A stretch of 38,700 nucleotides of DNA from a virus (taxonomy: Duplodnaviria > Caudoviricetes), in the IMG/VR virus record IMGVR_UViG_3300037423_002015, positions 1 to 38,700 of that record, one strand, 5' to 3'. Below are positions 22,872 through 38,520 of this stretch, one piece after another; position 1 is the first letter of the stretch; every line of letters begins with the position of its first letter. The translations under genes were made by a program, and so were the position numbers. A model generated the notes under the pieces. The model made no database searches, was not told the DNA's origin, and saw only the letters and a program-made list of their open reading frames with translations.

Positions 22872-24629
22872 ATGAAGATATTTAGAGTAATTTTAGCCGC
22901 TGTCTTGATGATGACGGTGGCCGTTCCAAATATGGGTTTTGCATTAAGCGATCAGGACCGGGCCGAATTCGCCTTTCAAAACTATTTAGCTGGAAAAAAC
23001 CCAGGATTTGAAAACGGAAAAGCAGGCTGGACGGCTTCGGGCGGAACATTTTCGACCGCAACAAGCGGCTCGAATTATATGGGCATCGGCCGAGCTAGCG
23101 GAACATGGGATTCATCCTCCGCCGGTCAAACACTCACCTCGCCAGCGTTCACGGTAACTAACGGCGCCGCTGGGAATAATGCGCTTGCTCGATGCAAGGT
23201 CATGACCCCATCAGGAACCGCCACTCACACGATGGGCCTTTGGGACGGGACCAATTTAACGAATACGATTTCCATTCCCTCCAGCACAACCGCACAATAC
23301 GTCGAAATACCTTTTCCGATGGGAGCCGCGGCCTCGACCGTCGCTATTCGGTTTACATCCGTCGCATCAAATGAACCGCTGATCTCGATTGACGATTGTT
23401 ACATTGGACCAAACTTCAACCTTTCAAACGGCCAACCAATTACGGATTGGGCGAGCTTTACTCCAACGGGAACCTGGACCGCCAATAGCACGTATACGGG
23501 AAAATGGCGCCGAGTTGGTGACGTTGCGGAATATCAGGTTACCATCACGGCTTCCGGCGCACCGACTGCCACTCAGCTTTACATCAATTTGCCGACTGGC
23601 CATGTGATTGATACGGCGAAGCTTGCATCGACCGCAAACAATCCCCCGCTCGGGTTTGGTATGGCGACGGATTCGGGAGTTTCAAATTACCCTGTCCGCG
23701 TTGACTATGATTCGACGACTCGCGTTTCAGTTACGGCCGTGGGCACAGCATCAACCTATGCGTCTACATCCGGACTAACTGCAACGATTCCCTTTACTTT
23801 CGGAAACGCCGATTCAGTCGATGTCCTTTTCCGTGTTCCTATTGCGACATGGGGAGCTCAATCGGCCATCCGCGCAGATAATTCGGATTTTGATTGGACC
23901 AGCTATACACCAACGTATGTGGGTCTTGGTTCACCCACCGGAACTGCATATTATCGTCGCGTCGGTGATTCGGTAGAGGTGCAATTTAATTTCACTGCGG
24001 GCACAGTTACGAGCTCAGCTGCATCAATTTCTCTTCCGTCAGGTCTTACGATCAATTCGTCAAAGTTTAATAGTACTGGCATGGCTGGATATTGGACGGC
24101 CAATAGCTTCGGCGCAACGGTTTCAACTCATTTAATTGCCGACTCGGGAACATCGGTCATTAATTTCGGCTTAATTGTCGGATCTAGTAACGGTTTTACA
24201 AAGGCATTGGGAACAAGTATTGGAACCGGAGCAATAGTAACGGGCCATACTTTTCTAATTCCAGTCACAGGTTGGACTACGAGCCAGCGCGCCCCATTAT
24301 TAGTGGGTTCGGTAACTTCTAATACGACAGGATTAGAGCGTGTGGAAAGAGCAACCATTTCTTCTTCTACGCCATCAGTTAGTTCGCAATCGGGCTCGTG
24401 GATTTCTAGTGTTTCTCGTCCGGCGACAGGTCAATTTACCCTGACATTAGCGAGTGGAATTTTTTCGGGCATTCCTTCTTGTGTCGCTAACGTTTCGAAC
24501 GGTGGGGCTGGAAATAACTTTGTCGCTCAGACTTCGCCTGGATCAACGACGTCGGTAAACGTTGCCGTCGCCAACGCCGGCACTGCAACGAATGCGGATT
24601 TTCAGGTAATTTGCATGGGGCCGAGATAG
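22872..24629 (+). CDS. Ser/Thr/Gly-rich fibre/adhesin-like protein with apparent N-terminal signal peptide
   Basis: MKIFRVILAAVLMMTVAVPNMGFA leader, NPGFE.G..GW carbohydrate-binding-like start, and two DW.S(F/Y)TPT...(W/Y)RRVGD repeats. Confidence 0.65.
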   Translation: MKIFRVILAAVLMMTVAVPNMGFALSDQDRAEFAFQNYLAGKNPGFENGKAGWTASGGTFSTATSGSNYMGIGRASGTWDSSSAGQTLTSPAFTVTNGAAGNNALARCKVMTPSGTATHTMGLWDGTNLTNTISIPSSTTAQYVEIPFPMGAAASTVAIRFTSVASNEPLISIDDCYIGPNFNLSNGQPITDWASFTPTGTWTANSTYTGKWRRVGDVAEYQVTITASGAPTATQLYINLPTGHVIDTAKLASTANNPPLGFGMATDSGVSNYPVRVDYDSTTRVSVTAVGTASTYASTSGLTATIPFTFGNADSVDVLFRVPIATWGAQSAIRADNSDFDWTSYTPTYVGLGSPTGTAYYRRVGDSVEVQFNFTAGTVTSSAASISLPSGLTINSSKFNSTGMAGYWTANSFGATVSTHLIADSGTSVINFGLIVGSSNGFTKALGTSIGTGAIVTGHTFLIPVTGWTTSQRAPLLVGSVTSNTTGLERVERATISSSTPSVSSQSGSWISSVSRPATGQFTLTLASGIFSGIPSCVANVSNGGAGNNFVAQTSPGSTTSVNVAVANAGTATNADFQVICMGPR

Positions 24630-24710
24630 GGAAGGTAAGAAATTTTGAATTCTTTAGTCCAAATTTCAGAGTCGCCAAATGACAATAGCTAAACGGGAGG
24701 GCAACTAACT

Positions 24711-25070
24711 GTGGACGATTTGCAGCCCAACCACGAGCGCAAAGCGGGCGGCGGAGTATGGCTGACGCATAAACATCTCGCATATAGTGGGATAGTCAGT
24801 GCCGTTCTTTTTGCCATTCAGCCGACCTTGACCCATTTCAGCACCAAAGATGAGACCAATGCGCATCTCGAAACTGTTCAAGTTCAATTGACCGCTCAAG
24901 CCAAGCAATTGGACGACATTCAGCAGCTGGTCAAAGACCTGAATCTGAGCATTCAAGATCGTGAAAAGCAGTCTGAGGCCCGTCAGCGCTTTATCGATGA
25001 CCGCCAAGATCGTCAGATTGAATCGCTTGAAGCAAGTCGCCTCTCAGGCCGAAAAACAAGCAACAATTGA
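24711..25070 (+). CDS. Membrane-anchored coiled-coil protein in the lysis region
   Basis: GGGAGG SD, GTG start, hydrophobic LAYSGIVSAVLFAI then heptad repeats. Confidence 0.65.
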   Translation: MDDLQPNHERKAGGGVWLTHKHLAYSGIVSAVLFAIQPTLTHFSTKDETNAHLETVQVQLTAQAKQLDDIQQLVKDLNLSIQDREKQSEARQRFIDDRQDRQIESLEASRLSGRKTSNN

Positions 25071-25087
25071 TCCAGGGAGGACGAAGA

Positions 25088-25225
25088 GTGAAAGACTGGA
25101 CCGGTGCCATTCTCGCTGCGGCTTTGTGGATTGAGTACCAGCTTACAAGGTCCGGACTCGCGCCGCTTCTTTTGGCCTTGCTCTTCTTTCTAGCGTTTTG
25201 GTTGTCTGTTTCTAACGTGCCCTAA
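25088..25225 (+). CDS. 45-aa hydrophobic protein, holin candidate (not in the ORF track)
   Basis: GGAGG SD 7 nt before GTG. Translates MKDWTGAILAAALWIEYQLTRSGLAPLLLALLFFLAFWLSVSNVP. Confidence 0.55.
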   Translation: MKDWTGAILAAALWIEYQLTRSGLAPLLLALLFFLAFWLSVSNVP

Positions 25226-25249
25226 GATGGGCGTAACAATGGAGCAAGA

Positions 25250-25495
25250 ATGAAGACGATTTACGAGCATTCGATCGGTGGCGATGGTGCAGTGGCTGGC
25301 CTTTACGTCGACGGCGATTTTGTTATTGAACAGGTGAAATACCCGTTGGCCAAAGCGCTCGATCCGGCTGACAAATTCATCGACAGTGCGATCGATGGCC
25401 TTGAAGCGAAGATTCCTGGCGACTGGGATAAGGCTCTCCTTGAGCCTGCCCGTGTAGCCGCCCATGCCGAGCTCCAGAAGCTAGTCGGTGGCTAA
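25250..25495 (+). CDS. Hypothetical protein
   Basis: GGAG SD. Overlaps the next gene. Confidence 0.7.
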   Translation: MKTIYEHSIGGDGAVAGLYVDGDFVIEQVKYPLAKALDPADKFIDSAIDGLEAKIPGDWDKALLEPARVAAHAELQKLVGG

Positions 25496-25862
25496 CGCGG
25501 ATACGGTCGACATTACAGACCTGGTTGAAAAAACCAGGTCTGCCTTTGTCGATTGGGCAGTTGCTTATGTCTATGGCGTAGAGGTCGCGATTCCTGAATT
25601 GGGACCGATCATCGAACTGCCAGTTATCAAAGAGGCCGATCAGGAAATCATCCGCCTCGTTGTCGATAGTCTTTCGAAATCCGCGATCATGCTGGCGTTT
25701 TTTACGAACACAGTTCTTCGAAAGGCTACGCAGGCAGACGATTTCGTGAAAGCCGTGAACGCAAAGTTCAACCTCCCGGGAGATGCGTCCAATGACGACA
25801 TTCAAAAAGCTGAAGCTGCACAGATGGTTGCCTTTCGCAATTTCGTCGTTCTGGTTAATTAG
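25488..25862 (+). CDS. Hypothetical protein
   Basis: 124-aa ORF coupled within the operon. Confidence 0.65.
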   Translation: MANADTVDITDLVEKTRSAFVDWAVAYVYGVEVAIPELGPIIELPVIKEADQEIIRLVVDSLSKSAIMLAFFTNTVLRKATQADDFVKAVNAKFNLPGDASNDDIQKAEAAQMVAFRNFVVLVN

Positions 25863-26307
25863 CTGTGCATCTCCCCCTCCTGCAATATTTGCGTTTGAGC
25901 ACCTGCCCCAGACAATCACAACTGATCCCGTGACTGGACACATGCTTCTGAGGCCAAGCCCGACCTGCATGCTCTTTCTTAAGGAATCGGAGTGCGGACA
26001 TGGTGTGAATATCATGACGAAGCAGGAAATATTTGTGGGGGAAAACTCGTTCGCGGCATCGTGGCTGGTCAACGGAAAGAATGAAATCACAAATCTTCCT
26101 TTAAAGGATTCTCACTATCCTTTTGGGGTCAAGCCTTGGTCCCAACTTCGGCGTGAATCTGTCTACTTGCCGGCTGTTGAGAGCTATGCGCCGCTGAGTT
26201 CTTACATCATTAACCAATGCGACAAGGCAAAATGTTCTGCCGACGTCGACCGTTTCAAGGTGCGACTCGACGAGCTCAAAAGCATTGGCTCAATTATTAA
26301 ACCGTAG
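25792..26307 (+). CDS. Lipoprotein, possibly o-spanin-like
   Basis: Basic N-terminus, hydrophobic stretch and lipobox LIS-C followed by ASPPP. Its 5' end overlaps the previous gene in another frame. Confidence 0.55.
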   Translation: MTTFKKLKLHRWLPFAISSFWLISCASPPPAIFAFEHLPQTITTDPVTGHMLLRPSPTCMLFLKESECGHGVNIMTKQEIFVGENSFAASWLVNGKNEITNLPLKDSHYPFGVKPWSQLRRESVYLPAVESYAPLSSYIINQCDKAKCSADVDRFKVRLDELKSIGSIIKP

Positions 26308-26316
26308 GAGTTTACA

Positions 26317-26967
26317 ATGAAACGAGTTCCTGTGTCAGGCCCGGTTACTCTCTGCTACGATGTCTCCCACTGGCAGCAAGACCTGCATCTGCACGCGCAT
26401 ATGCGATTGCTCGGTGCAAAGGTCTGCATGATTAAAGCGACCGAAAGTCTTGCCATCCAGGATGACATGTTCAGGAAACATGTAGCTGAAGCGAAGACAC
26501 AGGGTATGATCGTGGGATTCTATCATTTCAATCGGGCCAACCGCGATCCAATCGCACAAGCGAGGAACTATGAACAGGTGATCGGTTCACTGGGCCAGAA
26601 CGATCTGGGCCCAATTTTAGACTTAGAGACCTTCGACGGACTGGATATTCCCCACGTTCGCGATGAGGCATTGACGATCATTCGTGAATTGCATTCTCAC
26701 TTCGGCCGGACGGTCGTGTTGTACGGGGGACCATCGAAGCTCGAAAGCTTGAACTTACCCCCGGAGGTTGCGCGATTATGCGTACTCTGGGTTGCGCACT
26801 ACGGCCCGCAGCCTTCAACGGGGCCATTGGTCCCAGCCCCGTTCAACAAATGGGCTTTTTGGCAGTTTACGGATGGTAAGGTTGGCTTTAGCAAAGGTGG
26901 CGCATTCATCAAATGCGATTTCAGCTATTTTTGGGGCGAGCTAACGGATTTGAAGAGCGTCGGCTAG
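26317..26967 (+). CDS. Endolysin, GH25 muramidase
   Basis: DVSHWQ, IKATE, GFYHF, LDLE (DxE), LWVAHY, FWQFTD. AGGAG SD. Confidence 0.93.
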   Translation: MKRVPVSGPVTLCYDVSHWQQDLHLHAHMRLLGAKVCMIKATESLAIQDDMFRKHVAEAKTQGMIVGFYHFNRANRDPIAQARNYEQVIGSLGQNDLGPILDLETFDGLDIPHVRDEALTIIRELHSHFGRTVVLYGGPSKLESLNLPPEVARLCVLWVAHYGPQPSTGPLVPAPFNKWAFWQFTDGKVGFSKGGAFIKCDFSYFWGELTDLKSVG

Positions 26968-26968
26968 G

Positions 26969-27394
26969 TTAAGGCTGTACTTCCATAGTGCGTTGGAGGT
27001 GTGGACCTCTCGGCCCGTTGAAAGGGTCCGCGCTGATTCTGAAATAGGCCGTATCGCCAGCTTTCAAGATTGATTCTGTCTCTTCTGGGCTATCGCCCCC
27101 GACATGCACGGCCAAAACGTGGCTTCCTTCATTGAGCTCACATGCATACTTTTCGCTCCGTCCAATATCGGCCACGTCTACACCATCGATTTTGAGCGTT
27201 GCAAATCGTGCTCCCGCTCGAGTCATTGATCCAGAGTCCCTGACTACGATGAGCTTCGCTTTGGGCGCATCATTAATCTTCGGATTTGCAAGGATGCGAT
27301 TTGCGGGTACGTCTGTTGCGTCTGACACTTTAACTGCCTCGCTCGCACAGGCGGTTAGAATTGAACATACAATCGCCGCGAATATTATTTTCAT
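26969..27394 (-). CDS. Lipoprotein (moron; possible superinfection-exclusion factor)
   Basis: MKIIFAAIVCSILTA-C lipobox and L.VVRDSG......ID G..VA.I...E......G.H beta-sandwich pattern. Antisense to the late operon. Confidence 0.75.
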   Translation of the reverse strand: MKIIFAAIVCSILTACASEAVKVSDATDVPANRILANPKINDAPKAKLIVVRDSGSMTRAGARFATLKIDGVDVADIGRSEKYACELNEGSHVLAVHVGGDSPEETESILKAGDTAYFRISADPFNGPRGPHLQRTMEVQP

Positions 27395-27522
27395 GACTAC
27401 CATATCGGAGTTGTTTGATCAGACCTTTAGTCATGTCTCATATCAAGGCAACCGCTCGGACTTGGGTAAACAAAAGCTAAATTATTCCGATAAATATTAT
27501 GCCCATATTAGAGGGGGGACCG

Positions 27523-28188
27523 ATGACATCTCAGAAAATCGTTTCGGAAATAGATGCTCAGGTTAAGGCGGCGGACCGCTATATTAAATCCGCTCCGTGG
27601 GCGGATAAGGCATTCTATGCTGCCTGGTGCGTTCAGACCTTCAAATATGTGTCTCACTCAGCGCCATTGATTAAGCTTTGCGCTGACAGGCTTCCCAAGA
27701 GCAATGCGTTCAAGCGTGAAATGGAAAAGCATTATCGCGAGGAGGTTGGCCATGAGCAATTTGCCCTTCGCGACGCTAAGTTTTTCGGAATTGACGCGAA
27801 AATGGAGAGGGAACTGGATGCAACCAAAAGCATCTATGACGCCATTTATGCTGAGATCGAGGCCGATCCAATGGCGATGTTTGGTTATGCCCTAGCACTT
27901 GAGAATATCTCGAAGCATTATGGACCATGGATTGCGGAAACAGTCTGTTACTCCTACGGAATCGACCCAAAAAAGGCCTTTAAAGACAATGTGCCGGCTT
28001 CATTTCTGACCCTTCATGCTCACGTCGACCAGGATCATGCTGATTCAGGTCTGACAGCTTTGGAAAAGGTCCCACCCAACTCATACGAGACCGTTTATAG
28101 AGTGATGATGAAGACCTTCAGGGCCTATCAGCAATTTTTGGAGGCTATCGAGCGTGAATCCGTTAAAAACGGCAAGTCTGCGGCATAG
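27523..28188 (+). CDS. Heme-oxygenase-like diiron oxidase (HDO; CADD/PqqC/TenA superfamily)
   Basis: H..EE.GHE (HYREEVGHEQ), Y..ALE and FL.LH..VD.DH metal-ligand motifs. GAGGGGG SD before ATG 27523. Confidence 0.85.
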   Translation: MTSQKIVSEIDAQVKAADRYIKSAPWADKAFYAAWCVQTFKYVSHSAPLIKLCADRLPKSNAFKREMEKHYREEVGHEQFALRDAKFFGIDAKMERELDATKSIYDAIYAEIEADPMAMFGYALALENISKHYGPWIAETVCYSYGIDPKKAFKDNVPASFLTLHAHVDQDHADSGLTALEKVPPNSYETVYRVMMKTFRAYQQFLEAIERESVKNGKSAA

Positions 28189-28837
28189 TGATTCGCCAGA
28201 AATATTGCGCCCGGTATATCAGTTTTGGAAGGAAAACTGGAACCGTGAGTTTCGCGATCAAGGTTTACATGGAATCACTTCCGACAATTCTGACGATTTT
28301 TGGTCGGCGGATTCAATTCGGGTCGTTTATTTGAACGGCATGGTTGTTTCCCTAATGATCGAGAGCCAGTTCGATCTGGGCCTGGAATGGGATCGCGCAC
28401 ATTCCTATTTTAATGGATATCCTCCGGAGCTTTTCGATGGTGGCCCGCGAAAGGTTACCGCTTTGAGGTATTTTGTAGTGGCGCCGGAGTTCAGAAAAGA
28501 CAGCGAACTTCAGGTTGGATCTACCACTCTTGCGCTTTGCTTCGATGCATTTATGCGCTCGGATTCAAAGCATTTAATTGGAATGACATTAAGGCGGCTC
28601 GGGGCTCACAATCTCTGCATGAAGTTTGGAATGCAAATCATTGGCTCTGGGAGGGAAAGCAAGCATGGTGTCGGCGTAGCCTACGTCATTGTCGATAAGG
28701 AGCGACTAAACCATTTGATGATTAGTAGATTGATTAAGGGCATCTCAAATCAGTTCGAGTCTCGGCCTACTCTCGAAAGGGGCAGCAAAGATCTGCTCGG
28801 TGCGATGGCTTACAAAAAAACCGGCAAGGCCGGATGA
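28154..28837 (+). CDS. GNAT-fold acyltransferase (LuxI / N-acyl amino acid synthase-like)
   Basis: LRYFVVAPEFRK..ELQVG (motif A) and AHNLCMKFGMQ (motif B), with an N-terminal helix then SDDF. Overlaps the HDO gene. Confidence 0.65.
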   Translation: MNPLKTASLRHSDSPEILRPVYQFWKENWNREFRDQGLHGITSDNSDDFWSADSIRVVYLNGMVVSLMIESQFDLGLEWDRAHSYFNGYPPELFDGGPRKVTALRYFVVAPEFRKDSELQVGSTTLALCFDAFMRSDSKHLIGMTLRRLGAHNLCMKFGMQIIGSGRESKHGVGVAYVIVDKERLNHLMISRLIKGISNQFESRPTLERGSKDLLGAMAYKKTGKAG

Positions 28838-29383
28838 CATCCAGTTATAGACTGGCGCCGCGATTCCAAGTTTCATGTTCCAGTAAGTATTGATTTTTTT
28901 CGATTCCAATTTCTCCCAGACTTTATGAGCAGGGACAGAAAACTTGATCGTCTTCCGTTGGGCGAGGACGGGAGCAATCTGTTCCTGAACCAAGGGAATG
29001 TAGTCAGATTCACGCTCATAGAGCTCGAAGTTCGACTGCATCATCAATCTGACAAGGCTATAGGTTTTGAAGCGCAAGAACGAGGCCGAGCGATAGAGTT
29101 GGGAGAAGTCGGCACTATAAATTTCAAACACGTTGTCTTGGCCAGAAAAAGCCTCGTCCAGGGTGTCCTGGTCGATTCGGAAATTATTTAGATCAAGGAA
29201 CCTTTCGAGCATAAATCGCTCAGTCTTAAGTGACATGTCGCCTTGATCTAGTTCCGAATAAATTTTGAAATAAAGCTCAATTTGTTTGCCCAGCTCGGGG
29301 GTGATCTCGGTCAAATGTTCGGCAGGTTTGTCAAACGCCCGAGATAGACGCTCAAACATCAAAGCATAATTTAAGCTTGTCAT
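28745..29383 (-). CDS. Stand-alone PAS/MEKHLA-like sensor protein
   Basis: VFEIYSADFSQLYRSASFLRFKTYSLVRLMMQSNFELYE...LVQEQIAPVL follows the PAS pattern i.i.d..g.i.y.N.af....Gys..el.g....el. AAGG SD. Confidence 0.55.
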   Translation of the reverse strand: MTSLNYALMFERLSRAFDKPAEHLTEITPELGKQIELYFKIYSELDQGDMSLKTERFMLERFLDLNNFRIDQDTLDEAFSGQDNVFEIYSADFSQLYRSASFLRFKTYSLVRLMMQSNFELYERESDYIPLVQEQIAPVLAQRKTIKFSVPAHKVWEKLESKKINTYWNMKLGIAAPVYNWMSSGLAGFFVSHRTEQIFAAPFESRPRLELI

Positions 29384-29446
29384 AGGACCTTCTTTGCCTT
29401 AGCTACTAAATAAACAACGCGAGAGGGCCAACTAAGGTTTACCACC

Positions 29447-29707
29447 ATGGACCATGCATTTAAAGAATCAGTGATGAAGCGTGAATATTTGATAATGTTG
29501 GCCAATGAGTTTTCAGTTTTTGCGGGGGCCCAGGCCTTCAATGTGGCTGGCGGAACTGCTGATGATGTTGCTCATTTGCTTGAAATGGATGAAGCCAAGA
29601 TCGATGAGGTCATTAGCCAATTTCAGAAAATGCTACTTGTCCTCCAACAGACCTACATGCCGTATTCGAAGTTTAAAACCACCGCTTTAGGTATCGCGGA
29701 AGATTAG
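29447..29707 (+). CDS. Small hypothetical protein between the PAS-like gene and the repressor
   Basis: 86-aa ORF divergent from the PAS-like gene, with a 4-nt stop overlap with cI. Confidence 0.55.
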   Translation: MDHAFKESVMKREYLIMLANEFSVFAGAQAFNVAGGTADDVAHLLEMDEAKIDEVISQFQKMLLVLQQTYMPYSKFKTTALGIAED

Positions 29708-30267
29708 CGCGATTTCTTTGAAACCTTCGGCTTCGGAGTCATCGGAATCTTAGGTCTCTGAGAAGCCGGCATTTTTTCATAATGTTTGGTGAATGTGTCG
29801 GTGCGAAGTGCATGCAGGGCGATTTTGAAATGGTCGCGCATTACGGCCGGCAATTTCGGATGATAGGTTGCTAAATTTTCGAAATTCTTCGTTTCTTCCA
29901 TAAGAAGGTTGAGCCGTTCAATCTCAGCGTTTAGGCGATCGATTTCGGCGGTTAGATTTTTGACCTCACTTGTTGCCCCTGCGGCAGGAAGTCGTTCTTC
30001 GAGAATTTGAAGAATTTTAGACTCGTTCCTTGCCAGATCCGAAAGCGTTATTTTGTCGGGCGCGGGCGCCCCCAAAAACATGCTTGGTTCAACTTGGAGC
30101 TTTGCGGCGATTTCAAAGAGCTTGGTGGTGCTGATCTCTGATTCGCCTGCTTCGATCCTCTGCAACTGGCGAGAAGAGAGTCCAATATCACGCGCAAATT
30201 CCGGCTGTTTTATACCAGCGGCCTCTCTAAGCGTTTGAATTCTCTGGCCAACTTCTCGCGCGCTCAT
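29704..30267 (-). CDS. cI: CI-like repressor (XRE HTH), no S24 peptidase domain
   Basis: VGQRIQTLREAAGIKQPEFARDIGLSSRQLQRIEAGE...LFEIAAKLQV. The C-terminus is coiled coil. Divergent from cro. Confidence 0.88.
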   Translation of the reverse strand: MSAREVGQRIQTLREAAGIKQPEFARDIGLSSRQLQRIEAGESEISTTKLFEIAAKLQVEPSMFLGAPAPDKITLSDLARNESKILQILEERLPAAGATSEVKNLTAEIDRLNAEIERLNLLMEETKNFENLATYHPKLPAVMRDHFKIALHALRTDTFTKHYEKMPASQRPKIPMTPKPKVSKKSR

Positions 30268-30274
30268 AAACTCC

Positions 30275-30303
30275 ATTTTGCCCGACATGCAATGTCGGAT
30301 AAA
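30275..30303 (-). promoter_or_regulatory. PRM-like weak promoter for cI
   Basis: On the minus strand TTTATC-17 nt-CAAAAT, with operator 1 in the spacer. ATG lies 7 nt downstream. Confidence 0.5.
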
Positions 30304-30350
30304 CGACATCCGACGTCGTATTTCGCTTGAAATGCGACATAAAATGTCGT
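30282..30350. promoter_or_regulatory. Three operator palindromes CGACAT-N3-ATGTCG
   Basis: CCGACAT-GCA-ATGTCGG (30282-30298), ACGACAT-CCG-ACGTCGT (30303-30319), GCGACAT-AAA-ATGTCGT (30334-30350). Confidence 0.9.
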
Positions 30351-30355
30351 ACGTT
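30327..30355 (+). promoter_or_regulatory. PR-like sigma70 promoter for cro
   Basis: TTGAAA-17 nt-TACGTT, with operator 3 filling the spacer. Confidence 0.7.
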
Positions 30356-30361
30356 GTGCAA

Positions 30362-30604
30362 ATGAAGAGACGACTCGACCGCAAGACGATGATTGCTTGG
30401 AAGGAAAAGGTTGGCGGCGACGCTGAGGCAACGAAACTCGTAATGAGCTGCCTCAAATGTTCACCGTCCAAAGCAGCCAAGGTCGCCTCTGGACATTACC
30501 CAAGCTCTCCTAGGCCGCTTGAGCGCGAAGCCTTGGCGAGATTAGTGGGCGTTGAGGAATCTGAGCTTTTCCCGGTGGCAGCCGGTAAGAGCCGAGCTTC
30601 CTAA
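30362..30604 (+). CDS. cro: Cro-like HTH regulator
   Basis: 80 aa, divergent from cI. CSPSKAAKVASG..P......ALARLVGVEESELF HTH pattern. Confidence 0.8.
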   Translation: MKRRLDRKTMIAWKEKVGGDAEATKLVMSCLKCSPSKAAKVASGHYPSSPRPLEREALARLVGVEESELFPVAAGKSRAS

Positions 30605-30631
30605 TAAATTAATGTTGTTTGCTTAATATAT

Positions 30632-30895
30632 GTGCAACGCGAGAATTGCAACGCGCAAGGCAGATGTGCGTCTTTTTTACAGGAGTTGACTGTGACCGCC
30701 GCATTCAAACTGTGGAATCCTCTTGGCTGGTTTGTGCGAATCCCCCGCAAGGCCAGACGGCGCACCCGTCGCGAAATTCTAGTAGATATACATCGTGTTA
30801 TTGCGAAGGCACAGATTCGATCGGGTGATCCGGTTGCTCAGGCATGCGCGCTCTCGAGTATCGCTTCGATTGTCCGGGCGGAGTTGGGAAGATGA
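30632..30895 (+). CDS. Hypothetical protein
   Basis: ORF after cro. Start uncertain. Confidence 0.4.
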   Translation: MQRENCNAQGRCASFLQELTVTAAFKLWNPLGWFVRIPRKARRRTRREILVDIHRVIAKAQIRSGDPVAQACALSSIASIVRAELGR

Positions 30896-30947
30896 AGAGG
30901 CAATTCGACACTGGGGCGGGTTGAAGATGTTCAACAGGGGGAAATAC

Positions 30948-31190
30948 ATGAAGGTAATGACTGAGGCGGTCTTTGATCTGCACCTCAATATTGTGGGTAG
31001 CTGCCAGCTCATTGACGGCAGAATCGAGTGCGACATCGAAAGCGTCCAGGCGCTTGGCCAACCGATCGAACTTAGCGCTCTTCCGAGCGAAGCGCATAAA
31101 GCGATCAAACAGCGCCTGTGGAGCGTAGCGCTCTGCCAGCGCCGCCCAGATGGAGACGGCGAAAGCGCTGTGACAACGGGGGAGCCGTGA
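30948..31190 (+). CDS. Hypothetical protein
   Basis: AGGGGG SD before ATG 30948. Confidence 0.6.
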   Translation: MKVMTEAVFDLHLNIVGSCQLIDGRIECDIESVQALGQPIELSALPSEAHKAIKQRLWSVALCQRRPDGDGESAVTTGEP

Positions 31191-31235
31191 GCACACGCCT
31201 TTTCGCATGGGTTTTGAAACGTTGAATGATTAAAG

Positions 31236-31386
31236 CCCGACCGCTCTTGCGTGTGACCCCATGGCCAAACCTACCAATGGCCACGGGCGCGTGAGAGCGG
31301 CGGGAGAGTGTTTTCCCGGCGGCGGGCGCCTTATGAGAACGGCAGCGCTGGACAAGAGCGCTGTTGCCTTGCCACCGCCGTCGGGA
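31236..31386 (+). ncRNA. Candidate structured RNA (two long tandem hairpins) upstream of xis
   Basis: Outer stems 31236-31304 and 31314-31386 pair extensively, and the apparent mismatches are G-U wobbles on the + strand. Confidence 0.5.
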
Positions 31387-31417
31387 CGTCTATATGAAGG
31401 GGAATTGGGGGAGGCAT

Positions 31418-31612
31418 ATGGCCGAGAAGAAATTGCCCATGCTGCTCACGACAAGATCGTTCCAGGAGCACATCATCAATTGGTCGGACGACACGATTCG
31501 GCGTCGAATCCAGCATGAAGGATTGCCAGGCAAGCGCGATGGCAAGAGCTACATTTTTTGCACCAACGAAGTGCTCGAATGGTTCGCGCGGAAGGGTTTG
31601 AAAGTCGGATGA
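31418..31612 (+). CDS. xis: Excisionase (HTH_17/MerR-like)
   Basis: WSDDTIRRRIQHEGLPGKRDGKSYIF...EVLEWF. GGAGG SD and ATGA overlap with int. Confidence 0.82.
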   Translation: MAEKKLPMLLTTRSFQEHIINWSDDTIRRRIQHEGLPGKRDGKSYIFCTNEVLEWFARKGLKVG

Positions 31613-32727
31613 GTCAGCGACTCAAGCAACTCATTAATGAACAGGGCGGTCGTGAGGCTGACCTTTGGGTCGACGAGAAGACTAAGGTGATCTATTTCCT
31701 GAAGTCGATCGAGGGCAAGAAGGTCAAGTTCTCCACAAAAGTAAAGGCCCCCGATGTTCGTAAGGCCCGGCGTGAGGCGAATCGTCTCCTCGCAAAACGG
31801 ATCAACAAATCTAAGGAGCAGGAAGTCACCCTCATCAAGGATGAGCTGGCACACTGGCTTGTCGTTAAAGAAAACGAAGGCCTTGCATACGACACTTTGA
31901 ACAACGTCAAACGTGCGAAGCGCCAAATCGAAGCCTATTGGGGAATAAAGCAAATTCACGAGTTGAACACTGACGGAATGCCGAAGTGGTATCAATGGTG
32001 GCGCGAGAATAACCCAGAGATCGAGATGGAAAACGCCGTAAAATATTTGCGGAATTTCTGCGACTACCTTGCTTCCAAAATCGTCGACGATAAACCTTTG
32101 CTTGCGATTGTGCCGAAGATCTCTGACCCGAACTACAAAAAGACTCGTCGTGCCCGAAAGAAGAAGAAAGAGAGAATTATAACACCGGCCGAGCTAAAGA
32201 CGATTGTCGAGAAGGCCGCCAACGAAGATGAGGCCACGGTGATTTTGATCATGTACACAATGGCTACGCGAATCACCGAGACCCTCACAATGTCGTTTGG
32301 CCAAGAGATTGTGCTCGATAAGGATACACCGATCTATCGTTGGGCCGACGGACAGAATAAAGCTGATCACGATGGCTACCACGCGCTTCATCCGATACTA
32401 GTTCCGCGACTTCGCCGGCTTCGCGATCGCAGAATGGACGAGGGAACAACCCGTCTCTTCCCGCAGCAAAGAGATAATCAGGCTCCCCTTAAAGAGCAAC
32501 AGATTGACTGGGCTGGTTGGCGCAAGCGCGCTGATCTTGGCTGGCACTGGACCCCGCACACGTTCCGTCACACATGTCTTTCGAACCTTTTCAATAACGA
32601 GAAGAATCCGCAGGCGCTGATCCTCAAGCTTTACCGCGTGAGTCTCGCCGTCGCGCTCGAAACCTATGTGAAGCCCACCCAGTCAGGCATCGAGAAAATG
32701 AGAACTGCAATTGAGGTTGAGCTATGA
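31609..32727 (+). CDS. int: Tyrosine integrase
   Basis: Catalytic R (MATRITE), K (QNK), HxxR (PHTFRHT) and Y (LETYVK). Confidence 0.92.
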   Translation: MSQRLKQLINEQGGREADLWVDEKTKVIYFLKSIEGKKVKFSTKVKAPDVRKARREANRLLAKRINKSKEQEVTLIKDELAHWLVVKENEGLAYDTLNNVKRAKRQIEAYWGIKQIHELNTDGMPKWYQWWRENNPEIEMENAVKYLRNFCDYLASKIVDDKPLLAIVPKISDPNYKKTRRARKKKKERIITPAELKTIVEKAANEDEATVILIMYTMATRITETLTMSFGQEIVLDKDTPIYRWADGQNKADHDGYHALHPILVPRLRRLRDRRMDEGTTRLFPQQRDNQAPLKEQQIDWAGWRKRADLGWHWTPHTFRHTCLSNLFNNEKNPQALILKLYRVSLAVALETYVKPTQSGIEKMRTAIEVEL

Positions 32728-32736
32728 ATTTTAATA

Positions 32737-32985
32737 GTTGCGAATTCGTTACGGCTGAAAATTCAAATCGACAAAAGTCTGGTTGGTTTCAGGAAGTTAA
32801 GAAAATGTGTGGCGTCCCCTACGAGATTTTTCGCATTTGGGATGCGCACGGGAGAATTGTTTCTAAGCTATCAGAATCTTTCCGGTTTCTAGTGAGACCT
32901 ACTAGATTCTGCATCAAACCTCAAAAACAACTGAACGCAATAGAACGCAAACGCCGCGCATGGTGGGTTGCGAATTCGTTACGGC
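32737..32985. other. attP region: tRNA-derived core flanked by arm-type repeats
   Basis: Core 32810-32829, reverse complement AAATCTCGTAGGGGACGCCA. A 19-bp direct repeat GTTGCGAATTCGTTACGGC lies at 32737-32755 and 32967-32985. Confidence 0.85.
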
Positions 32986-33086
32986 CTCGCCTGCTGCACG
33001 CCGGGTCCTCGCCTTGAATCGCTGAACTTTGATTATAGCACCACAACGTCAGATCGCAACAGTGAAGCCAGTCCGGGGGGAAAACA

Positions 33087-33971
33087 ATGGCACGCACAAA
33101 CATCGAAGAAGAAGCACATCGTCGCGTTTCCAAATTGGCGCAGCTGATGCAGTGTTCGGACCGTGAGGCTCTGGGCACCGTCAGCTTTCTATGGACGGAC
33201 AGCCAGGACATCTTGGCGACCCATGGCACTCGAGATCAGATCTTGGAATGGGCTCATCTATTCAACGCCTCAGATGAGCTTTGTGAAAAATGGTTGTCTG
33301 CCCTCCAAAAATCCAGGTTCATTTCGGCCCCGCAAAATGGCGAATTTGAAATTCACGGGAACAAGACGCAAATCGAGAACAGGATTGTCTACTCATCGCG
33401 CGCAGCTAAGGGTGGGAAAGCTCTAAAGAAAAAATGGAAGGAAAAGAAGAAGCTAGAAGCAGGCTTGAAGCAAGCCTCAAGCTCACGTAAGAGGGGCCGC
33501 AAGCCCTCGCCAAGCTCCTCAAAGCAAGGCAGTGCAATCCAGGGCAATTCAGAGCAAGAAAAACCTGTAGAAGAGGCCGCTGCTGGGAGTCCTCCAGCTG
33601 GGGAAGGGGCGGCACATTCCGTAATCGTTCACACCTTCCAAAACTCTCTCATTGAGTCGGTTCTCCGATTCGTCCCTGAAGCGATTCAACAAGGCTGGGT
33701 GGACGAGTATGAACCTTCCTGGCTCAAATCCGTTCTTTTGAAGGGTATTCAGCGCAAGATTGCCGACGCTGGCGCCCACACACCCTGCCAGGTTTCGGAT
33801 TGGCCCTCCAAGCTTGTTACGTGGGTGGCAAACGAAAAAGACCCTCTGCGCCGAAAGCAGGAATCCCCGCGCGTAATGGAGCCCAAAAGAGAATGGGATC
33901 CAAGCGCAAAAGAGCGCGCCCTGCAAGATCCCGAAGTCGCCGCTAATCTCGCCAAGCTGAGGATCATGTGA
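33087..33971 (+). CDS. Putative replication initiator
   Basis: N-terminal A.G....LW helical/wHTH-like domain, R..A.KGG....KKW basic helix, low-complexity linker with DNA repeats and a C-terminal ...W....TW domain. Position fits. Confidence 0.65.
   Translation: MARTNIEEEAHRRVSKLAQLMQCSDREALGTVSFLWTDSQDILATHGTRDQILEWAHLFNASDELCEKWLSALQKSRFISAPQNGEFEIHGNKTQIENRIVYSSRAAKGGKALKKKWKEKKKLEAGLKQASSSRKRGRKPSPSSSKQGSAIQGNSEQEKPVEEAAAGSPPAGEGAAHSVIVHTFQNSLIESVLRFVPEAIQQGWVDEYEPSWLKSVLLKGIQRKIADAGAHTPCQVSDWPSKLVTWVANEKDPLRRKQESPRVMEPKREWDPSAKERALQDPEVAANLAKLRIM
33461..33557. repeat. Candidate replication origin repeats within the initiator gene
   Basis: Palindrome AGGCTTG-AAG-CAAGCCT, several CAAGC copies, and GCAA at exact 10-bp spacing (33524, 33534, 33544, 33554). 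Confidence 0.45.
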
Positions 33972-34330
33972 CAGATCAGTTTTTTGAAGATCAATGGGGA
34001 ATCCTCGCGAGCCGTCTTGGGCCCGATCTGACTGATGAGCTCAAGGATCAGGTCCAATACGAGCTTCGCGAAATGGACGATCGCGCGTTCGGGCTCGTCG
34101 TCTCCTTCATCCTTCGCAAGCATTCGAATCTGATGCCTCCGTATTTGTCTGACTTTCTCGAATGCCGCGAGAGCTGGCAACGAAAGAAGGTTCAGTCTAT
34201 GGCGAACGATGCGGTTCGCTCGGCGAATGGAGAATGGTGCAACAAATCGATCTCGGAAATCTTTGGCGGAGAATCGACGACCGCTCTTCAAGCTCTTGAG
34301 AACGCAAAGAAGAAAAGACCCGAAAAATAA
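33968..34330 (+). CDS. Putative helicase loader/replication accessory protein
   Basis: GTGA-coupled to the initiator. L..MDD..F...V..I......MPP.LSDF resembles G39P/P-like proteins. Confidence 0.45.
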   Translation: MTDQFFEDQWGILASRLGPDLTDELKDQVQYELREMDDRAFGLVVSFILRKHSNLMPPYLSDFLECRESWQRKKVQSMANDAVRSANGEWCNKSISEIFGGESTTALQALENAKKKRPEK

Positions 34331-34352
34331 ACAACCACCGTTGGGGGGGGCT

Positions 34353-34679
34353 ATGAATTCTGAAAAAGAACATCTGCAGGGCTACGAAAGCGATCCAGTA
34401 AATCACCCGCATTATTACACAAGCCATCCGTCTGGCCTGGAATGCATCCAGGTCACGCGGCATATGAGCTTTAACCTTGGCAATGTAGTCAAATATCTAT
34501 GGCGCGCCGACCTCAAGGGCGGGACGGAAGATCTGAAAAAGGCCGCTTGGTATCTAAACGACGAAATCGAAAAGCGAGAGCGCGCTGAGCTCGTTGAGCG
34601 AGCATGCTGTTCAGGCTGTGGATACATGCGCGAATACTGCAAATGCATTGGGGAGCGGACGAATGGCGAATTCGCGTAA
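34353..34679 (+). CDS. DUF3310 family protein
   Basis: DPVNHPHYY....LECI......F.LGNVVKYLWRA..KGG.EDLKKA.WYL. Confidence 0.9.
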   Translation: MNSEKEHLQGYESDPVNHPHYYTSHPSGLECIQVTRHMSFNLGNVVKYLWRADLKGGTEDLKKAAWYLNDEIEKRERAELVERACCSGCGYMREYCKCIGERTNGEFA

Positions 34680-34917
34680 CCGAGCTCAATTCGATATTCG
34701 CATGGAGTTTGACTTGGATAGCGGTGACCTTTCTGCAGATCAGCTCGGAGCGCACAAGATTGCGCTGCAAAAAGATCCGATTGAATGGTTCGCCAAGCGA
34801 TGGCACGACCCAGATCTCTTCATGGAAGTGAGATGCAAGATCCGCACGCCGGGCCAACAGAACGAAGACCGAAAACGAAGACAGAAACGAGATCAGAAAT
34901 CATGGAGGAAAGTATGA
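34663..34917 (+). CDS. Hypothetical protein
   Basis: GGGGAG SD. Overlaps both neighbours. Confidence 0.6.
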   Translation: MANSRNRAQFDIRMEFDLDSGDLSADQLGAHKIALQKDPIEWFAKRWHDPDLFMEVRCKIRTPGQQNEDRKRRQKRDQKSWRKV

Positions 34918-35273
34918 ACTATTTGTTGGAGTTCACAATCGACATGCTTCCGAAGATGGAAAACGAACTCACGCGAGCGAGATGGGAAGTACGATCGGGC
35001 TACTATCGCACGTGGCGCAGACGCATCGAGCAGGAATGTTGGCCACAGCGACCGTCGGAGCCGCTTGAAAATGCGCGCATCACATTTACAAGGTTCACAA
35101 GTGTCAAGACCGATCCCGAAGCTCTTCAAGCAAGCTTTAAACCTATCGTTGATGGGCTCGTTCAGGGTGGGATCATTCGCCTCGACGCTCTTGAGGGAAG
35201 CGTTGAATACTTCCATGAGCGTGCGCCACTCGGCAAAGGGTCCATAAGAGTCAAGGTGGTTGGTGTCGCATGA
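34914..35273 (+). CDS. rusA: RusA-like Holliday junction resolvase (divergent)
   Basis: ITFTRF....DPEAL..SFKPIVDGLV..GII..D matches RusA D.DN..K...D.L...G...DD. GGAGG SD. Confidence 0.7.
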   Translation: MNYLLEFTIDMLPKMENELTRARWEVRSGYYRTWRRRIEQECWPQRPSEPLENARITFTRFTSVKTDPEALQASFKPIVDGLVQGGIIRLDALEGSVEYFHERAPLGKGSIRVKVVGVA

Positions 35274-35415
35274 CGGACCTTCAAATCTGCGGCTGGCTGG
35301 TGCTTGTGCTGATCGCATATCTGCTCGGGCATGGGCTAAACAAAACATGAAAATCCATACGCTCACGGAGCATTTTTACAACAAAGGATATGAAATGGAA
35401 AAAGGGGGGAATGAG

Positions 35416-35643
35416 ATGAAAACAGAGGGAGAGAAACGATTCGATTATGTAAAGTACGATGACAAGTCGCTTTTGATTCAAGACGAATTCAAACAAAGAA
35501 CATTTTACTTTGAGCAAGCTATCGAAGTTCACTTGAGTAATGGCAGAGCAAAGGCATTGGCTCTTACAAAGCTTGAAGAATGTTACATGTGGATCGGAAA
35601 AGCGATTCGTGATGATCAACTTGCTTGCGAGGCTAAACCATGA
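35416..35643 (+). CDS. Acb2/Tad1-like helical hairpin protein (putative immune-signal sponge)
   Basis: RFDY...GRAKALALTKLEECYMWIGKAI matches the R..ALA.TKLEEA.MW...AI signature. Confidence 0.7.
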   Translation: MKTEGEKRFDYVKYDDKSLLIQDEFKQRTFYFEQAIEVHLSNGRAKALALTKLEECYMWIGKAIRDDQLACEAKP

Positions 35644-35834
35644 CCCCACCACGCTTCACAATCACCGCCGCCGACAATGGCTGGATAGTGCGAGTACACA
35701 GCTCGGGCCCTTTTAAATATTCGCCGGAAAGATTGAAGGACGTCATCGATTCGCGCCTCCTCGTCTTCGACGACTGGCACAAGCTTTACGAGTGGATGAT
35801 GAGGTTTTGCGGACCGAAAGAGGTGAGGGGATGA
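35640..35834 (+). CDS. Hypothetical protein
   Basis: ATGA-coupled. ITAADNGWIV motif. Confidence 0.65.
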   Translation: MTPPRFTITAADNGWIVRVHSSGPFKYSPERLKDVIDSRLLVFDDWHKLYEWMMRFCGPKEVRG

Positions 35835-36070
35835 GAGAAACAATCGAGCGCGTGTTATTTAATCCGCGCAATGGAGAACTAGCGGTCGGCATCCGTTTGC
35901 GCTTCATGGATAAATACGAACGCCAGGACATGGGGCCCGGCTTTGGGTACACAATTTCATGTGAGCCGAGGGATCACGACGCCTGGGGAATCCAAGATCA
36001 TGGCACCGGCTGGTGGGTTGTCGTCACAGCGGATCTCGCGTCCTTCCTCGAAGATCTGGGGCCTCTATGA
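35831..36070 (+). CDS. Hypothetical protein
   Basis: GAGGTG SD and ATGA-coupled. Confidence 0.65.
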   Translation: MRETIERVLFNPRNGELAVGIRLRFMDKYERQDMGPGFGYTISCEPRDHDAWGIQDHGTGWWVVVTADLASFLEDLGPL

Positions 36071-36399
36071 CCCAATCAGAAAAGCGCATCGAAAACATGA
36101 TCCTTCACTACTTGAACTCGAGACGGATCTTCGCCTGGAAGACACAAACGGTGGGCATTTATGATCAAAAACTTGGACGCTTTCGCAGGGCTGGGGCTTT
36201 ATATACTCGCGGTGTCGCTGACATCATTGGGATTTACAATTCTCGTTTACTCGCAATTGAGGTAAAGAGCGCTCGCGGGGTTTTAAGTGAGGATCAAAAG
36301 ATCTTCCTTCAGAACGTGAAGGAGCATGGCGGGATTGCAATGGTTGCAAGATCAGTTGAAGAAGTTGAAGAGAAACTTAGGCACTGGAGGGCGGCGTGA
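36067..36399 (+). CDS. VRR-NUC domain nuclease
   Basis: SE..IE..I...L, GVADII, AIEVK...G.LS..Q..F......GG...VARS. Confidence 0.9.
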   Translation: MTQSEKRIENMILHYLNSRRIFAWKTQTVGIYDQKLGRFRRAGALYTRGVADIIGIYNSRLLAIEVKSARGVLSEDQKIFLQNVKEHGGIAMVARSVEEVEEKLRHWRAA

Positions 36400-36611
36400 G
36401 AGCTGTCGAAAAACGATTGCGAGAGAGGATCAAGGATCTCGAGGCTAAGTTATCTACCGTCGAAGCTGACCGGCAGGGCTTTCGGGACGCGATCACCAGA
36501 AATATTCGGGAGGCGATTCGAATTCATGGCGAGGGAAAGTACTGGAACATGGCTAGTCTGATTGAAACATTGGCAAAGCAAATTGCGCAGCGTGAAAGGT
36601 GGTATTGGTGA
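36396..36611 (+). CDS. Hypothetical coiled-coil protein
   Basis: GGAGG SD and GTGA coupling. Confidence 0.65.
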   Translation: MRAVEKRLRERIKDLEAKLSTVEADRQGFRDAITRNIREAIRIHGEGKYWNMASLIETLAKQIAQRERWYW

Positions 36612-36985
36612 AGCCGCCAAATATTGCGCCAGCCTATGCATGTCTTTATCCGGGCCTTTGTGAGATTGCTCGGTCTCTCGGATACGCGCTCGCAGTGCAC
36701 GGAAGCATGGTATCCGATTTCGACTTGATCGCTTGCCCATGGCGCGACGAAGTCGCCCCTCCCGAGATGTTGGTCAGCAACTTAATGAAACACATCGGTG
36801 CGTGTAGTTATCCGGAATTGTTAAAGCGCGCAGGATTACCGGAAGAGCACATCGCAGATATAGTTGCTCAACAAAATCAGGGCAAAGATCCGGAGGCAAA
36901 GCCTCATGGTCGCAAAGCTTGGAATTTATATTTAGATCATGGATGTAGAGTCGATCTATCCATTATGCCGAAGGAGCGCCCATGA
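36608..36985 (+). CDS. Hypothetical protein with nucleotidyltransferase-like GS..DxD motif
   Basis: GYALAVHGSMVSDFDLIACPW plus a later VDL strand. GTGA coupling. Confidence 0.6.
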   Translation: MKPPNIAPAYACLYPGLCEIARSLGYALAVHGSMVSDFDLIACPWRDEVAPPEMLVSNLMKHIGACSYPELLKRAGLPEEHIADIVAQQNQGKDPEAKPHGRKAWNLYLDHGCRVDLSIMPKERP

Positions 36986-37593
36986 AAACGCTAGCCGAGA
37001 TTGCTCATGAGATTGCTCATGAAAGCCCGAAATACTCTGGTTATCCATCGCATCTGGAAACCGCACTCGCCGGCGCCAAGGCAGCGCTGAACCACGAGGC
37101 GGTTGAGCAACTGCGGGGTTTTGCTGAGCATAGAGATCATTGCGTATACTGGAACACATTTGCTTGTAACTGTGGGCTTGAGAAAATTGAGAGGGCCTTC
37201 GACGCCCTGATGAAAGAGGTGGGGGGAGTGAGTCACGAATTTAACTTTGAGCCGCGCTTTGGGAACAAGGATCCATTTGATCCAAATCCTCCATTTTACA
37301 ATCATATGATTCACTGGCGGCCATGGGCCGAGCATTTCATGAATCAGGAGGGCGACATTCAGACGTTGGCGCTGATGTTTGCTTCAGCCCTAGAAGAGAT
37401 AAACCGGCTTTGTAATACAGGAATCAAAACACAGAAGGCGCAATCGGAGCTCTTGTTTGCCTATATTGAACTCGTTGAGACGGGAGTGCCGCGACCATTC
37501 GGTGATAGCTCCCTTGGTCCATGGGCCTCCCTTCAAATTCTAAATCAATGGCGAGCTGAGAATAAACTCAACATCAAGATGGTGGATGTATGA
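36982..37593 (+). CDS. Hypothetical protein (possibly two fused modules)
   Basis: AAGGAG SD. Internal H...C......CNCGL motif and an internal in-frame SD+GTG at 37228. Confidence 0.6.
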   Translation: MKTLAEIAHEIAHESPKYSGYPSHLETALAGAKAALNHEAVEQLRGFAEHRDHCVYWNTFACNCGLEKIERAFDALMKEVGGVSHEFNFEPRFGNKDPFDPNPPFYNHMIHWRPWAEHFMNQEGDIQTLALMFASALEEINRLCNTGIKTQKAQSELLFAYIELVETGVPRPFGDSSLGPWASLQILNQWRAENKLNIKMVDV

Positions 37594-37874
37594 CCCAAGA
37601 CCGCCCAAGCGCGCCGAGGGAGTGGTGGGTTGATGATCTAACATCAAGAGTTTGTGCGCCATGGAACCATGAGACGTTGGGTGTTCAAACGATGAAATGG
37701 CCCGATAGCGACAAAGTTATTCATGTCATCGAGAAGTCCGCCTACGACGCGCTCAAGAAGGAGCGGGATCACTGGAGAGACTGCGCCGAAAAGCACGCGG
37801 ACTTCATTAATCGTTTAATCGAAAGGGTGCTTGCACTTGAAAAGGAGTGTGGACGTGAGCCGGGAGATTACTAA
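37590..37874 (+). CDS. Hypothetical protein, paralog 1
   Basis: Shares PSAPREW and IHVIEKS.Y.A..KERD with the next ORF. Confidence 0.7.
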   Translation: MTQDRPSAPREWWVDDLTSRVCAPWNHETLGVQTMKWPDSDKVIHVIEKSAYDALKKERDHWRDCAEKHADFINRLIERVLALEKECGREPGDY

Positions 37875-38277: not shown

Positions 38278-38483
38278 AATTTCCGGATTCACTATATGAA
38301 ATTGGAGATTGTGTTGTTGTCGATCCTCCTTGGGGTTATCTCGAAGCACACAGTGTCTTCACGATTGTGGGCATTATGCTAGAGAAGAAAGACGCCGATG
38401 CTCAGCCAGAGGTCCTTTATGCGATGAAGGAAACGCGTTGGATGATCAAAGAACACAATATACGCAAAAAGGTGAAGCTATGA
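38274..38483 (+). CDS. Hypothetical small beta-rich protein
   Basis: ATGA-coupled. YEIGDCVVV pattern. Confidence 0.65.
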   Translation: MKFPDSLYEIGDCVVVDPPWGYLEAHSVFTIVGIMLEKKDADAQPEVLYAMKETRWMIKEHNIRKKVKL

Positions 38484-38520
38484 CCAACCGCCTCGACAGA
38501 TTGAAGGAGCTAGTGGAGCT

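Follow-up and report, generated by a model that had tools for sequence, protein, structure and literature searches.

Why would a temperate phage carry genes that appear suited to making and sensing a small metabolite directly beside the switch between lysis and lysogeny? The question is raised by positions 27523–30604 of the virus record IMGVR_UViG_3300037423_002015 (Duplodnaviria; Caudoviricetes), whose 38,700 bases form the window analyzed here. At this locus, genes for a heme-oxygenase-like dimetal oxidase (HDO), a GNAT-fold protein and a PAS-like protein lie next to a small open reading frame (ORF) and a cI/cro-type switch. We tentatively propose that the trio is a host-type metabolite synthase–sensor cassette that was co-opted to control lysogeny in two otherwise unrelated phages, a reading that in our judgment falls a little short of probable.

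The gene block in two phages and its relatives outside phages

The window holds the complete genome of a temperate phage of the lambda-like kind. It is a whole virus record with direct terminal repeats and a completeness estimate of complete, and its PHROG matches are arranged as in lambda-like phages (terminase, portal, head, tail, central fibre J, endolysin, repressor, integrase, and replication genes). Two ORFs on the plus strand encode the HDO (27523–28188; 221 amino acids (aa)) and the GNAT-fold protein, a putative N-acyltransferase (28154–28837; 227 aa), the 3′ end of the former overlapping the start of the latter by 35 nucleotides (nt). The 3′ end of the GNAT gene in turn overlaps by 93 nt the convergent gene for a stand-alone PAS-like protein (28745–29383, minus strand; 212 aa). 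Beyond it are an 86-aa ORF (29447–29707, plus strand), a candidate antirepressor or partner of the PAS-like protein, and a gene for a cI-like XRE repressor of about 190 aa (29704–30276, minus strand; alternative starts at 30288 or 30267), whose end is overlapped by the 86-aa ORF by 4 nt. A cro-like gene (30362–30604, plus strand; 80 aa) completes the block. The original prediction, made from the letters of the window, had described an overlapping pair encoding a diiron-ligand protein and a GNAT-fold protein that converges on a PAS-like gene followed by an 86-aa ORF and cI/cro, and the ORFs and their coordinates were confirmed.

The repressor and the cro-like gene appear to constitute a lambda-type divergent switch with three predicted operators. 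The repressor matches HTH_3 (E = 9e-11), and three operator-like palindromes of the form CGACAT-N3-ATGTCG lie between cI and cro, at 30283–30297, 30304–30318 (1 mismatch), and 30335–30349. Within the window the exact pattern occurs only at two of these three palindromes, and 200 shuffles of the window yielded one occurrence in total. The cro-like gene, which diverges from cI across the operators and whose identity rests on position and size, matched no Pfam or PHROG family; its start was picked by alignment with a second phage described below, in a frame that is open from 30278. No peptidase S24 domain was matched by Pfam models in cI or in the repressor of that second phage, so cI presumably cannot self-cleave in the manner of SOS-responsive repressors.

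The same block recurs in IMGVR_UViG_3300038701_001978, a P22-like temperate phage of 35,292 bases (portal, coat, integrase). There, an endolysin gene and a lipoprotein-like gene are followed by HDO (+), GNAT (+), PAS (−), an 89-aa ORF (+) that is the positional twin of the 86-aa ORF, a repressor (−), and a cro-like gene (+). The six-gene order is thus identical in the two phages, as is the 4-nt overlap of the small ORF with cI. When the window ORFs of at least 70 aa were compared with the second phage by BLASTP (E ≤ 1e-3), only HDO (50% identity), GNAT (39%), PAS (37%), and cI (26%) were matched. The relationship between the two repressors extends beyond the helix-turn-helix (HTH) domain into their C-terminal parts (0/2000 shuffles), and the cro genes are weakly alike (8/2000 shuffles); because of these relationships, the cassette and the switch seem to travel as one block. 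Gene GC content is 0.44–0.56 in the window phage versus 0.32–0.44 in the second phage, and the third-codon GC of HDO, GNAT, and PAS tracks the phage in which they reside (0.51–0.55 in the window versus 0.31–0.35 in the second phage), which suggests long residence of the trio in each phage instead of a single recent transfer. No clear repeated operator was found in the switch region of the second phage. The expectation that the genes would co-occur next to repressors elsewhere was therefore borne out by an unrelated phage with the same gene order, and extended to only that one other phage.

Copies outside phages indicate that the trio is a Bdellovibrionota-type cassette that also occurs with another regulator, so the original prediction needs correcting in that the trio was not invented by phages, and its adjacency to cI could reflect an accessory slot. 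Two such loci were seen directly. On a plasmid of Bdellovibrio sp. HM001, which had no Terminase_6N match, the order is XRE (−), GNAT (+), HDO (+), PAS (−); the HM001 PAS protein matched the family profile with E = 1e-36, and its GNAT matched that of the window with 90.6% probability. The other locus is divided between two metagenome contigs, L003 and L002, that abut inside one HDO gene (encoding the same protein as P0007) and together give the order XRE, HDO, GNAT, PAS (−), followed by an IS21-like element, whose transposase/ATPase pair lies directly upstream of the PAS gene (L002 2295–4563; translations read by eye). The XRE proteins of these cassettes are 104–113 aa long and are encoded beside the enzymes; those of HM001 and L003 are mutually close (score 187) and differ from the phage repressors outside the HTH. 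In both phages this host-type XRE is absent from the cassette, and the small ORF and cI/cro occupy its place. No counterpart of the small ORF was found beside the PAS gene in L002.

For the five closest of eight HDO relatives, a contig of exactly the same size carries a near relative of the PAS protein (6574, 3289, 6213, 3403, and 35292 bp), a pairing that is indirect for the 6574-, 3289-, and 6213-bp contigs; the 6574-bp size was also common to a GNAT relative. The other three of the eight matched none of the 10 close PAS clusters checked. HDO relatives named Bdellovibrionales bacterium made up 3 of the 15 members of one cluster, on contigs of up to 2.4 Mb. On the basis of these names and of the taxa of the Atlas clusters nearest to the PAS-like and GNAT proteins, we infer that the host belongs to the Bdellovibrionota.

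In all four copies the PAS gene and the last enzyme gene overlap tail to tail, by 93 nt in the window (28745–28837), 50 nt in the second phage (L001 9170–9219), 71 nt in L002 (1089–1159), and 20 nt on the HM001 plasmid (L007 1818–1837), an arrangement that could allow antisense or collision control. The HM001 plasmid also encodes, 3.5 kb from the cassette (L007 5953–6594, minus strand), another protein that was judged GNAT-like by eye and is annotated as hypothetical. More distant HDO relatives (27%) occur in Pseudoalteromonas in another cluster, where genes for a thermostable hemolysin, an AMP-binding protein, HDO, and a short-chain dehydrogenase/reductase stand together (L008 2883–7101); several other plasmid matches may share this Pseudoalteromonas-type HDO cluster.

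Several further observations concern the surroundings of the block. A single 38,685-base contig from one sequencing run (X1), possibly the run from which the window derives, covers all of 24000–38700, so this region was not pieced together from separate contigs, and no integration joint was seen within it when contigs of three DNA sequencing runs were compared. Two stretches, 35087–35104 and 38277–38679, stand out for three single-base differences from the X1 contig and for a short contig of a second run (X2) that omits parts of 38277–38679, with short sides. Another contig of 34.8 kb, present in both X1 and X2, matches 30555–30603, the 49 bases at the end of the cro-like gene, with 7 differences, and resembles the window downstream of that gene as well; it is probably a related phage. 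Downstream of cro, on the same strand and before the replication genes, lie an excisionase-like HTH gene and the integrase (31364–32727), an arrangement unlike that of lambda. Upstream, a lipoprotein gene (26969–27403, minus strand; phrog_890 lipoprotein, E = 7e-23) diverges from the HDO gene and is probably a flank outside the cassette. A lipoprotein-type gene lies between endolysin and HDO, divergent from HDO, in the second phage too (L001 7143–7721, minus strand); the two lipoproteins match in the signal peptide only and possibly serve superinfection exclusion. A sigma-70 promoter scan returned 2 sites versus 4.2 expected.

Predicted enzymes, sensor, and small protein

By fold and ligand set, the product of 27523–28188 is assigned to the HDO superfamily. 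It passes the cut-off of PF14518 (E = 4e-10) and carries the motif set ExxH / E / HxxxDxxH, in which the predicted metal ligands E74, H77, E127, H165, D169, and H172, whose role we presume from what is known of the family, are invariant in all nine aligned sequences. Its structure model (predicted local distance difference test (pLDDT) 94) matched the folds of 3DDE, UndA, and CADD with template modeling (TM) scores of 0.80, 0.79, and 0.72, respectively. No viral structure resembling it was found in BFVD at E ≤ 0.001.

For the GNAT-fold protein the evidence is structural, as neither it nor four relatives had a Pfam match. Its model (pLDDT 78) gave GNAT-fold matches throughout, in keeping with the original prediction. 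By Foldseek, the highest listed TM scores were those of RpaI/BjaI, which are coenzyme A (CoA)-dependent acyl-homoserine lactone synthases (0.59), and of FeeM (0.57). The VIA ranking placed arylalkylamine N-acyltransferases and SbzI first (Z 16–17; for 4fd4, Z 16.9 and root-mean-square deviation (rmsd) 2.6 over 171 aligned residues), followed by FeeM (PDB 2g0b; Z 15.1, rmsd 3.3, 169 aligned), TofI (14.9), and LasI (14.7). FeeM and GNAT clusters were among the Atlas feature neighbors of the protein, the FeeM clusters at 0.94–0.95. The Pfam autoinducer-synthase model of LuxI was matched by neither the protein nor its four relatives at E ≤ 1, the FeeM-type family PF21926 was not matched by the protein in the Pfam search, and PDB sequence searches with the GNAT and PAS profiles returned nothing significant. 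Because of the Foldseek and VIA matches, the protein is likely an amine acyltransferase, with the two methods ranking different subfamilies first.

A PAS fold for the product of 28745–29383, on which the original prediction had staked itself in advance, is supported by modeling. PAS proteins matched the Atlas model over residues 46–199 (TM 0.52–0.54 by query and 0.59–0.63 by target), the comparison with PAS clusters giving TM 0.53/0.63 over 138 residues, and all 10 named Atlas feature matches belonged to the same family or clan. The protein thus appears to consist of N-terminal helices and a PAS-like domain. No Pfam match was found in it or in 40 relatives, and the family, which has at least 146 representatives at E ≤ 0.001, is not covered by Pfam. 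In a 62-sequence tree, the 11 closest sequences formed one clade (support 1.0). The PAS-like part reaches approximately residue 199 of 212, and no HTH or other DNA-binding domain was matched in the protein; with no HTH detected, a mode of action like that of LuxR or VqmA is excluded.

The small ORFs of the two phages weakly resemble the N-terminal helices of long members of this PAS family. A profile of the long form of the family, built from 123 distant members (135 matches, 12 removed by length), was searched against 204 ORFs, and the two small ORFs were its top two non-PAS matches (E 0.0017 and 0.018). Both aligned at profile positions 17–74, the N-terminal helices, with scores reached by 0 of 1000 shuffles. 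On a model of the PAS N-terminus, the small ORF of the window scored 13.1 bits versus 12.3 for the genuine N-terminus of the HM001 PAS protein, and PAS proteins of the phage clade scored at most 5 bits. These similarities hint that the small gene is part of the cassette and may supply a helical interaction module. Prediction of a complex between cI and the small protein, from two-row alignments only, gave a score of 0.02, a value that weighs neither for nor against contact. Two cross-phage pairs showed a separate likeness between the C-terminus of cI and the N-terminus of the PAS protein (3 and 11 of 2000 shuffles), which we rejected because neither within-phage pairs nor profiles bore it out.

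Proposed lysogeny control and its alternatives

In the mechanism that we envisage, the GNAT-fold protein would acylate an amine, probably an amino acid, using host acyl-CoA or acyl carrier protein-bound acyl groups, and the HDO, with O2, would oxidize the product or its precursor (by UndA-like decarboxylation or desaturation, or by hydroxylation). The resulting oxidized acyl-amide would be diffusible and bind the pocket of the PAS protein, which, having no HTH, would act by touching another protein. The most likely partner is the small helical protein, which would serve as an antirepressor of a cI presumably incapable of self-cleavage. If arbitrium and the Phaeobacter prophages are a guide, high signal would favor lysogeny. 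The folds, the ligand set, the gene order, the operators, and the recurrence are directly supported; the mechanistic steps would follow as set out. Co-expression of PAS and cI in a lysogen is possible, as both are on the same strand.

Control of lysogeny by the cassette is favored by the recurrence of the whole block in a second phage, by the resemblance of the GNAT model to amine-acylating small-molecule synthases, by the co-occurrence of HDO and PAS in five of eight HDO relatives (judged via same-size contigs), and by the precedent of phage-made autoinducers that drive an xre/hth switch (bioRxiv 10.64898/2026.07.02.736140). Several results weigh against it. The arrangement of the cassette beside a switch is known from two phages only: surveys of viral contigs with HDO, GNAT, PAS, cI, and cro queries, which used short patterns and would miss distant relatives, yielded one other phage record, and no GenBank phage matched the cassette. 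Even with up to 3 mismatches allowed, the regions upstream of the HDO, PAS, and small-ORF genes lack the cI operator pattern, and the idea that cI represses the cassette directly is thus unsupported. The best VIA matches of the GNAT protein are general amine acetyltransferases, not signal synthases, HDO and PAS identities are weakly correlated across six pairs (r = 0.74; 48/720 permutations), and the Bdellovibrionota host is deduced, not observed. The link from the small ORF to the PAS family is weak by hhalign (probability 7%, E 0.005); one unrelated 162-aa ORF equals the small ORF on N-terminal-only profiles (12–13 bits via two stretches), amphipathic helices match easily, and direct alignment of the two small ORFs is not significant (155/1000 shuffles). 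A more far-reaching proposal, that Bdellovibrionota phages use a third class of lysis-lysogeny communication with a GNAT plus diiron-oxidase signal, a PAS-only receptor, and a receptor-derived small protein that relays to the repressor by contact, is a distinct if doubtful possibility.

Cargo genes are commonly found between endolysin and repressor, and the trio might be lysogenic-conversion cargo that makes and senses a metabolite for host regulation or fitness, its adjacency to cI reflecting an accessory position expressed in lysogens. We regard this explanation as doubtful, leaning toward unlikely. It would fit the presence of the trio outside phages (on the HM001 plasmid, beside the IS21-like element of L003/L002, and among Bdellovibrionales HDO relatives), the unrelated lipoprotein genes that occupy the same slot in both phages, the lack of a cI operator near the cassette genes, and a cassette GC content slightly below that of the virion genes (0.44–0.48 versus 0.50–0.56). 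Yet the cassette accompanies related cI and cro genes and the extra small ORF across two virion types whose flanks all differ, and the host-type XRE, the would-be reader of the signal, is the very gene missing from the cassette in both phages.

The same host-type relatives of all three genes in the Bdellovibrionota could also mean that the phages eavesdrop on or jam their hosts, with the PAS protein reading mainly the metabolite of a host cassette, and so coupling host density to the switch, and the phage enzymes altering or mimicking the host signal instead of making a private one. Autoinducer cross-talk between host and phage is described for Phaeobacter prophages, and VP882 senses a host autoinducer (bioRxiv 10.64898/2026.07.02.736140). 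We nevertheless think it unlikely here, as the PAS protein of the phage is one of 11 in a separate clade that occurs together with an HDO subfamily of its own, a pattern more in keeping with a cognate private pair.

GNAT toxins exist, some of them appear among the many Foldseek fold matches of the GNAT model, and this genomic slot often holds superinfection-defense genes. The locus might accordingly serve defense or toxicity, either through an antimicrobial or antiphage metabolite or through modification of a host protein or tRNA by the GNAT protein, with the PAS or small protein as immunity factor or trigger. This is improbable in our view: PADLOC returned no defense match for HDO, GNAT, PAS-like protein, or small ORF, the highest listed TM scores belong to small-molecule acyltransferases, and a GNAT protein stably paired with an oxidase points to joint biosynthesis.

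Relation to known systems and significance

Arbitrium combines a secreted peptide with an RRNPP receptor. The logic proposed for the co-opted cassette is similar, in that a phage-made signal encoded beside lysogeny genes would report lysogen density, but its chemistry and components would differ. The arbitrium system of Bacillus phages (AimP/AimR) is outlined in the introduction of the report on Phaeobacter prophages (bioRxiv 10.64898/2026.07.02.736140). The only trace of arbitrium parts in the window was a sub-threshold AimR match to the HTH of cI (11.9 bits versus a cut-off of 70), in a search that did not extend to very short peptide ORFs.

The closest parallel is provided by Bunsick et al., who show that in two unrelated prophages lysogeny is promoted by the homoserine lactones of hth/xre-luxR-luxI modules, and who count luxI systems in 53 of 93 Roseobacter prophages (bioRxiv 10.64898/2026.07.02.736140). 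That a non-peptide phage signal for lysogeny had gone undescribed, as the original prediction supposed, no longer holds in light of these LuxI/LuxR modules, and by analogy they raise the prior for the mechanism proposed here. The modules of Phaeobacter inhibens T5 and of Roseobacter phages resemble the window in that the phage encodes both a synthase of GNAT fold and a sensor for a ligand next to a divergent XRE/HTH switch, and in that one layout recurs at low sequence identity in unrelated phages. In contrast to them, the synthase of the window falls outside the LuxI model and is paired with an HDO, the sensor is PAS-only with no HTH detected, an extra small ORF is present, and the likely host is a member of the Bdellovibrionota. 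The main text of the report contains none of the whole words Bdellovibrio, PAS, oxidase, or GNAT. Unlike the single xre-luxR-luxI operon, the window has no luxR or luxI match and carries its enzymes on the strand opposite cI.

The small protein of the VP882 system is named Qtip, and VqmA has a PAS domain. Transcription factor–small ORF modules described by Silpe et al. provide a precedent for small-protein antirepressors (bioRxiv 10.1101/2022.09.16.508337; VP882: PMC12802170). In those modules, as in the window, a small gene adjoins the sensor, and its product could disable the repressor by a route that does not need SOS, which would suit a cI with no S24 domain. There, however, the small gene is reported to be switched on by a DNA-binding factor in response to a signal from the host, whereas here no HTH was detected in the sensor and synthase genes are carried by the phage itself.

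The tyz tailoring enzyme is a flavin enzyme. The reported pathways of FeeM, of the tyz/trz oxazolones and of the stieleriacines share with the window the combination of an acyltransferase with an oxidative tailoring enzyme (PMC10404671, PMC12856293, PMC12479983). The window differs from them in that its tailoring enzyme would be an HDO, the acyltransferase has no FeeM Pfam match, and the enzyme genes are associated with a PAS gene and the switch of a phage. The HDO itself shares its fold and six-residue carboxylate/histidine ligand set with UndA, CADD, BesC, SznF, and the uncharacterized 3DDE (Sden_3740), at 10–20% identity.

No description of an HDO, GNAT, and PAS cassette in phages or Bdellovibrio was found in open-access titles and the starts of abstracts, so that, as judged from gene content and order, the locus is a conserved module beside a phage switch that is undescribed in the open-access literature searched. 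The only phage-made lysis-lysogeny signals found in that literature were the peptides of arbitrium and, from 2026 on, the homoserine lactones of LuxI systems. If the co-opted cassette does control lysogeny, it would add a new chemistry, an HDO-tailored acyl-amide, and a receptor with no DNA-binding domain. The cassette in the Bdellovibrionota has no known output, and the phages hold synthase, sensor, repressor, and defined operators in a compact 3-kb block; the phage version could thereby help to reveal the function of the host cassette, a candidate quorum system of predatory bacteria.

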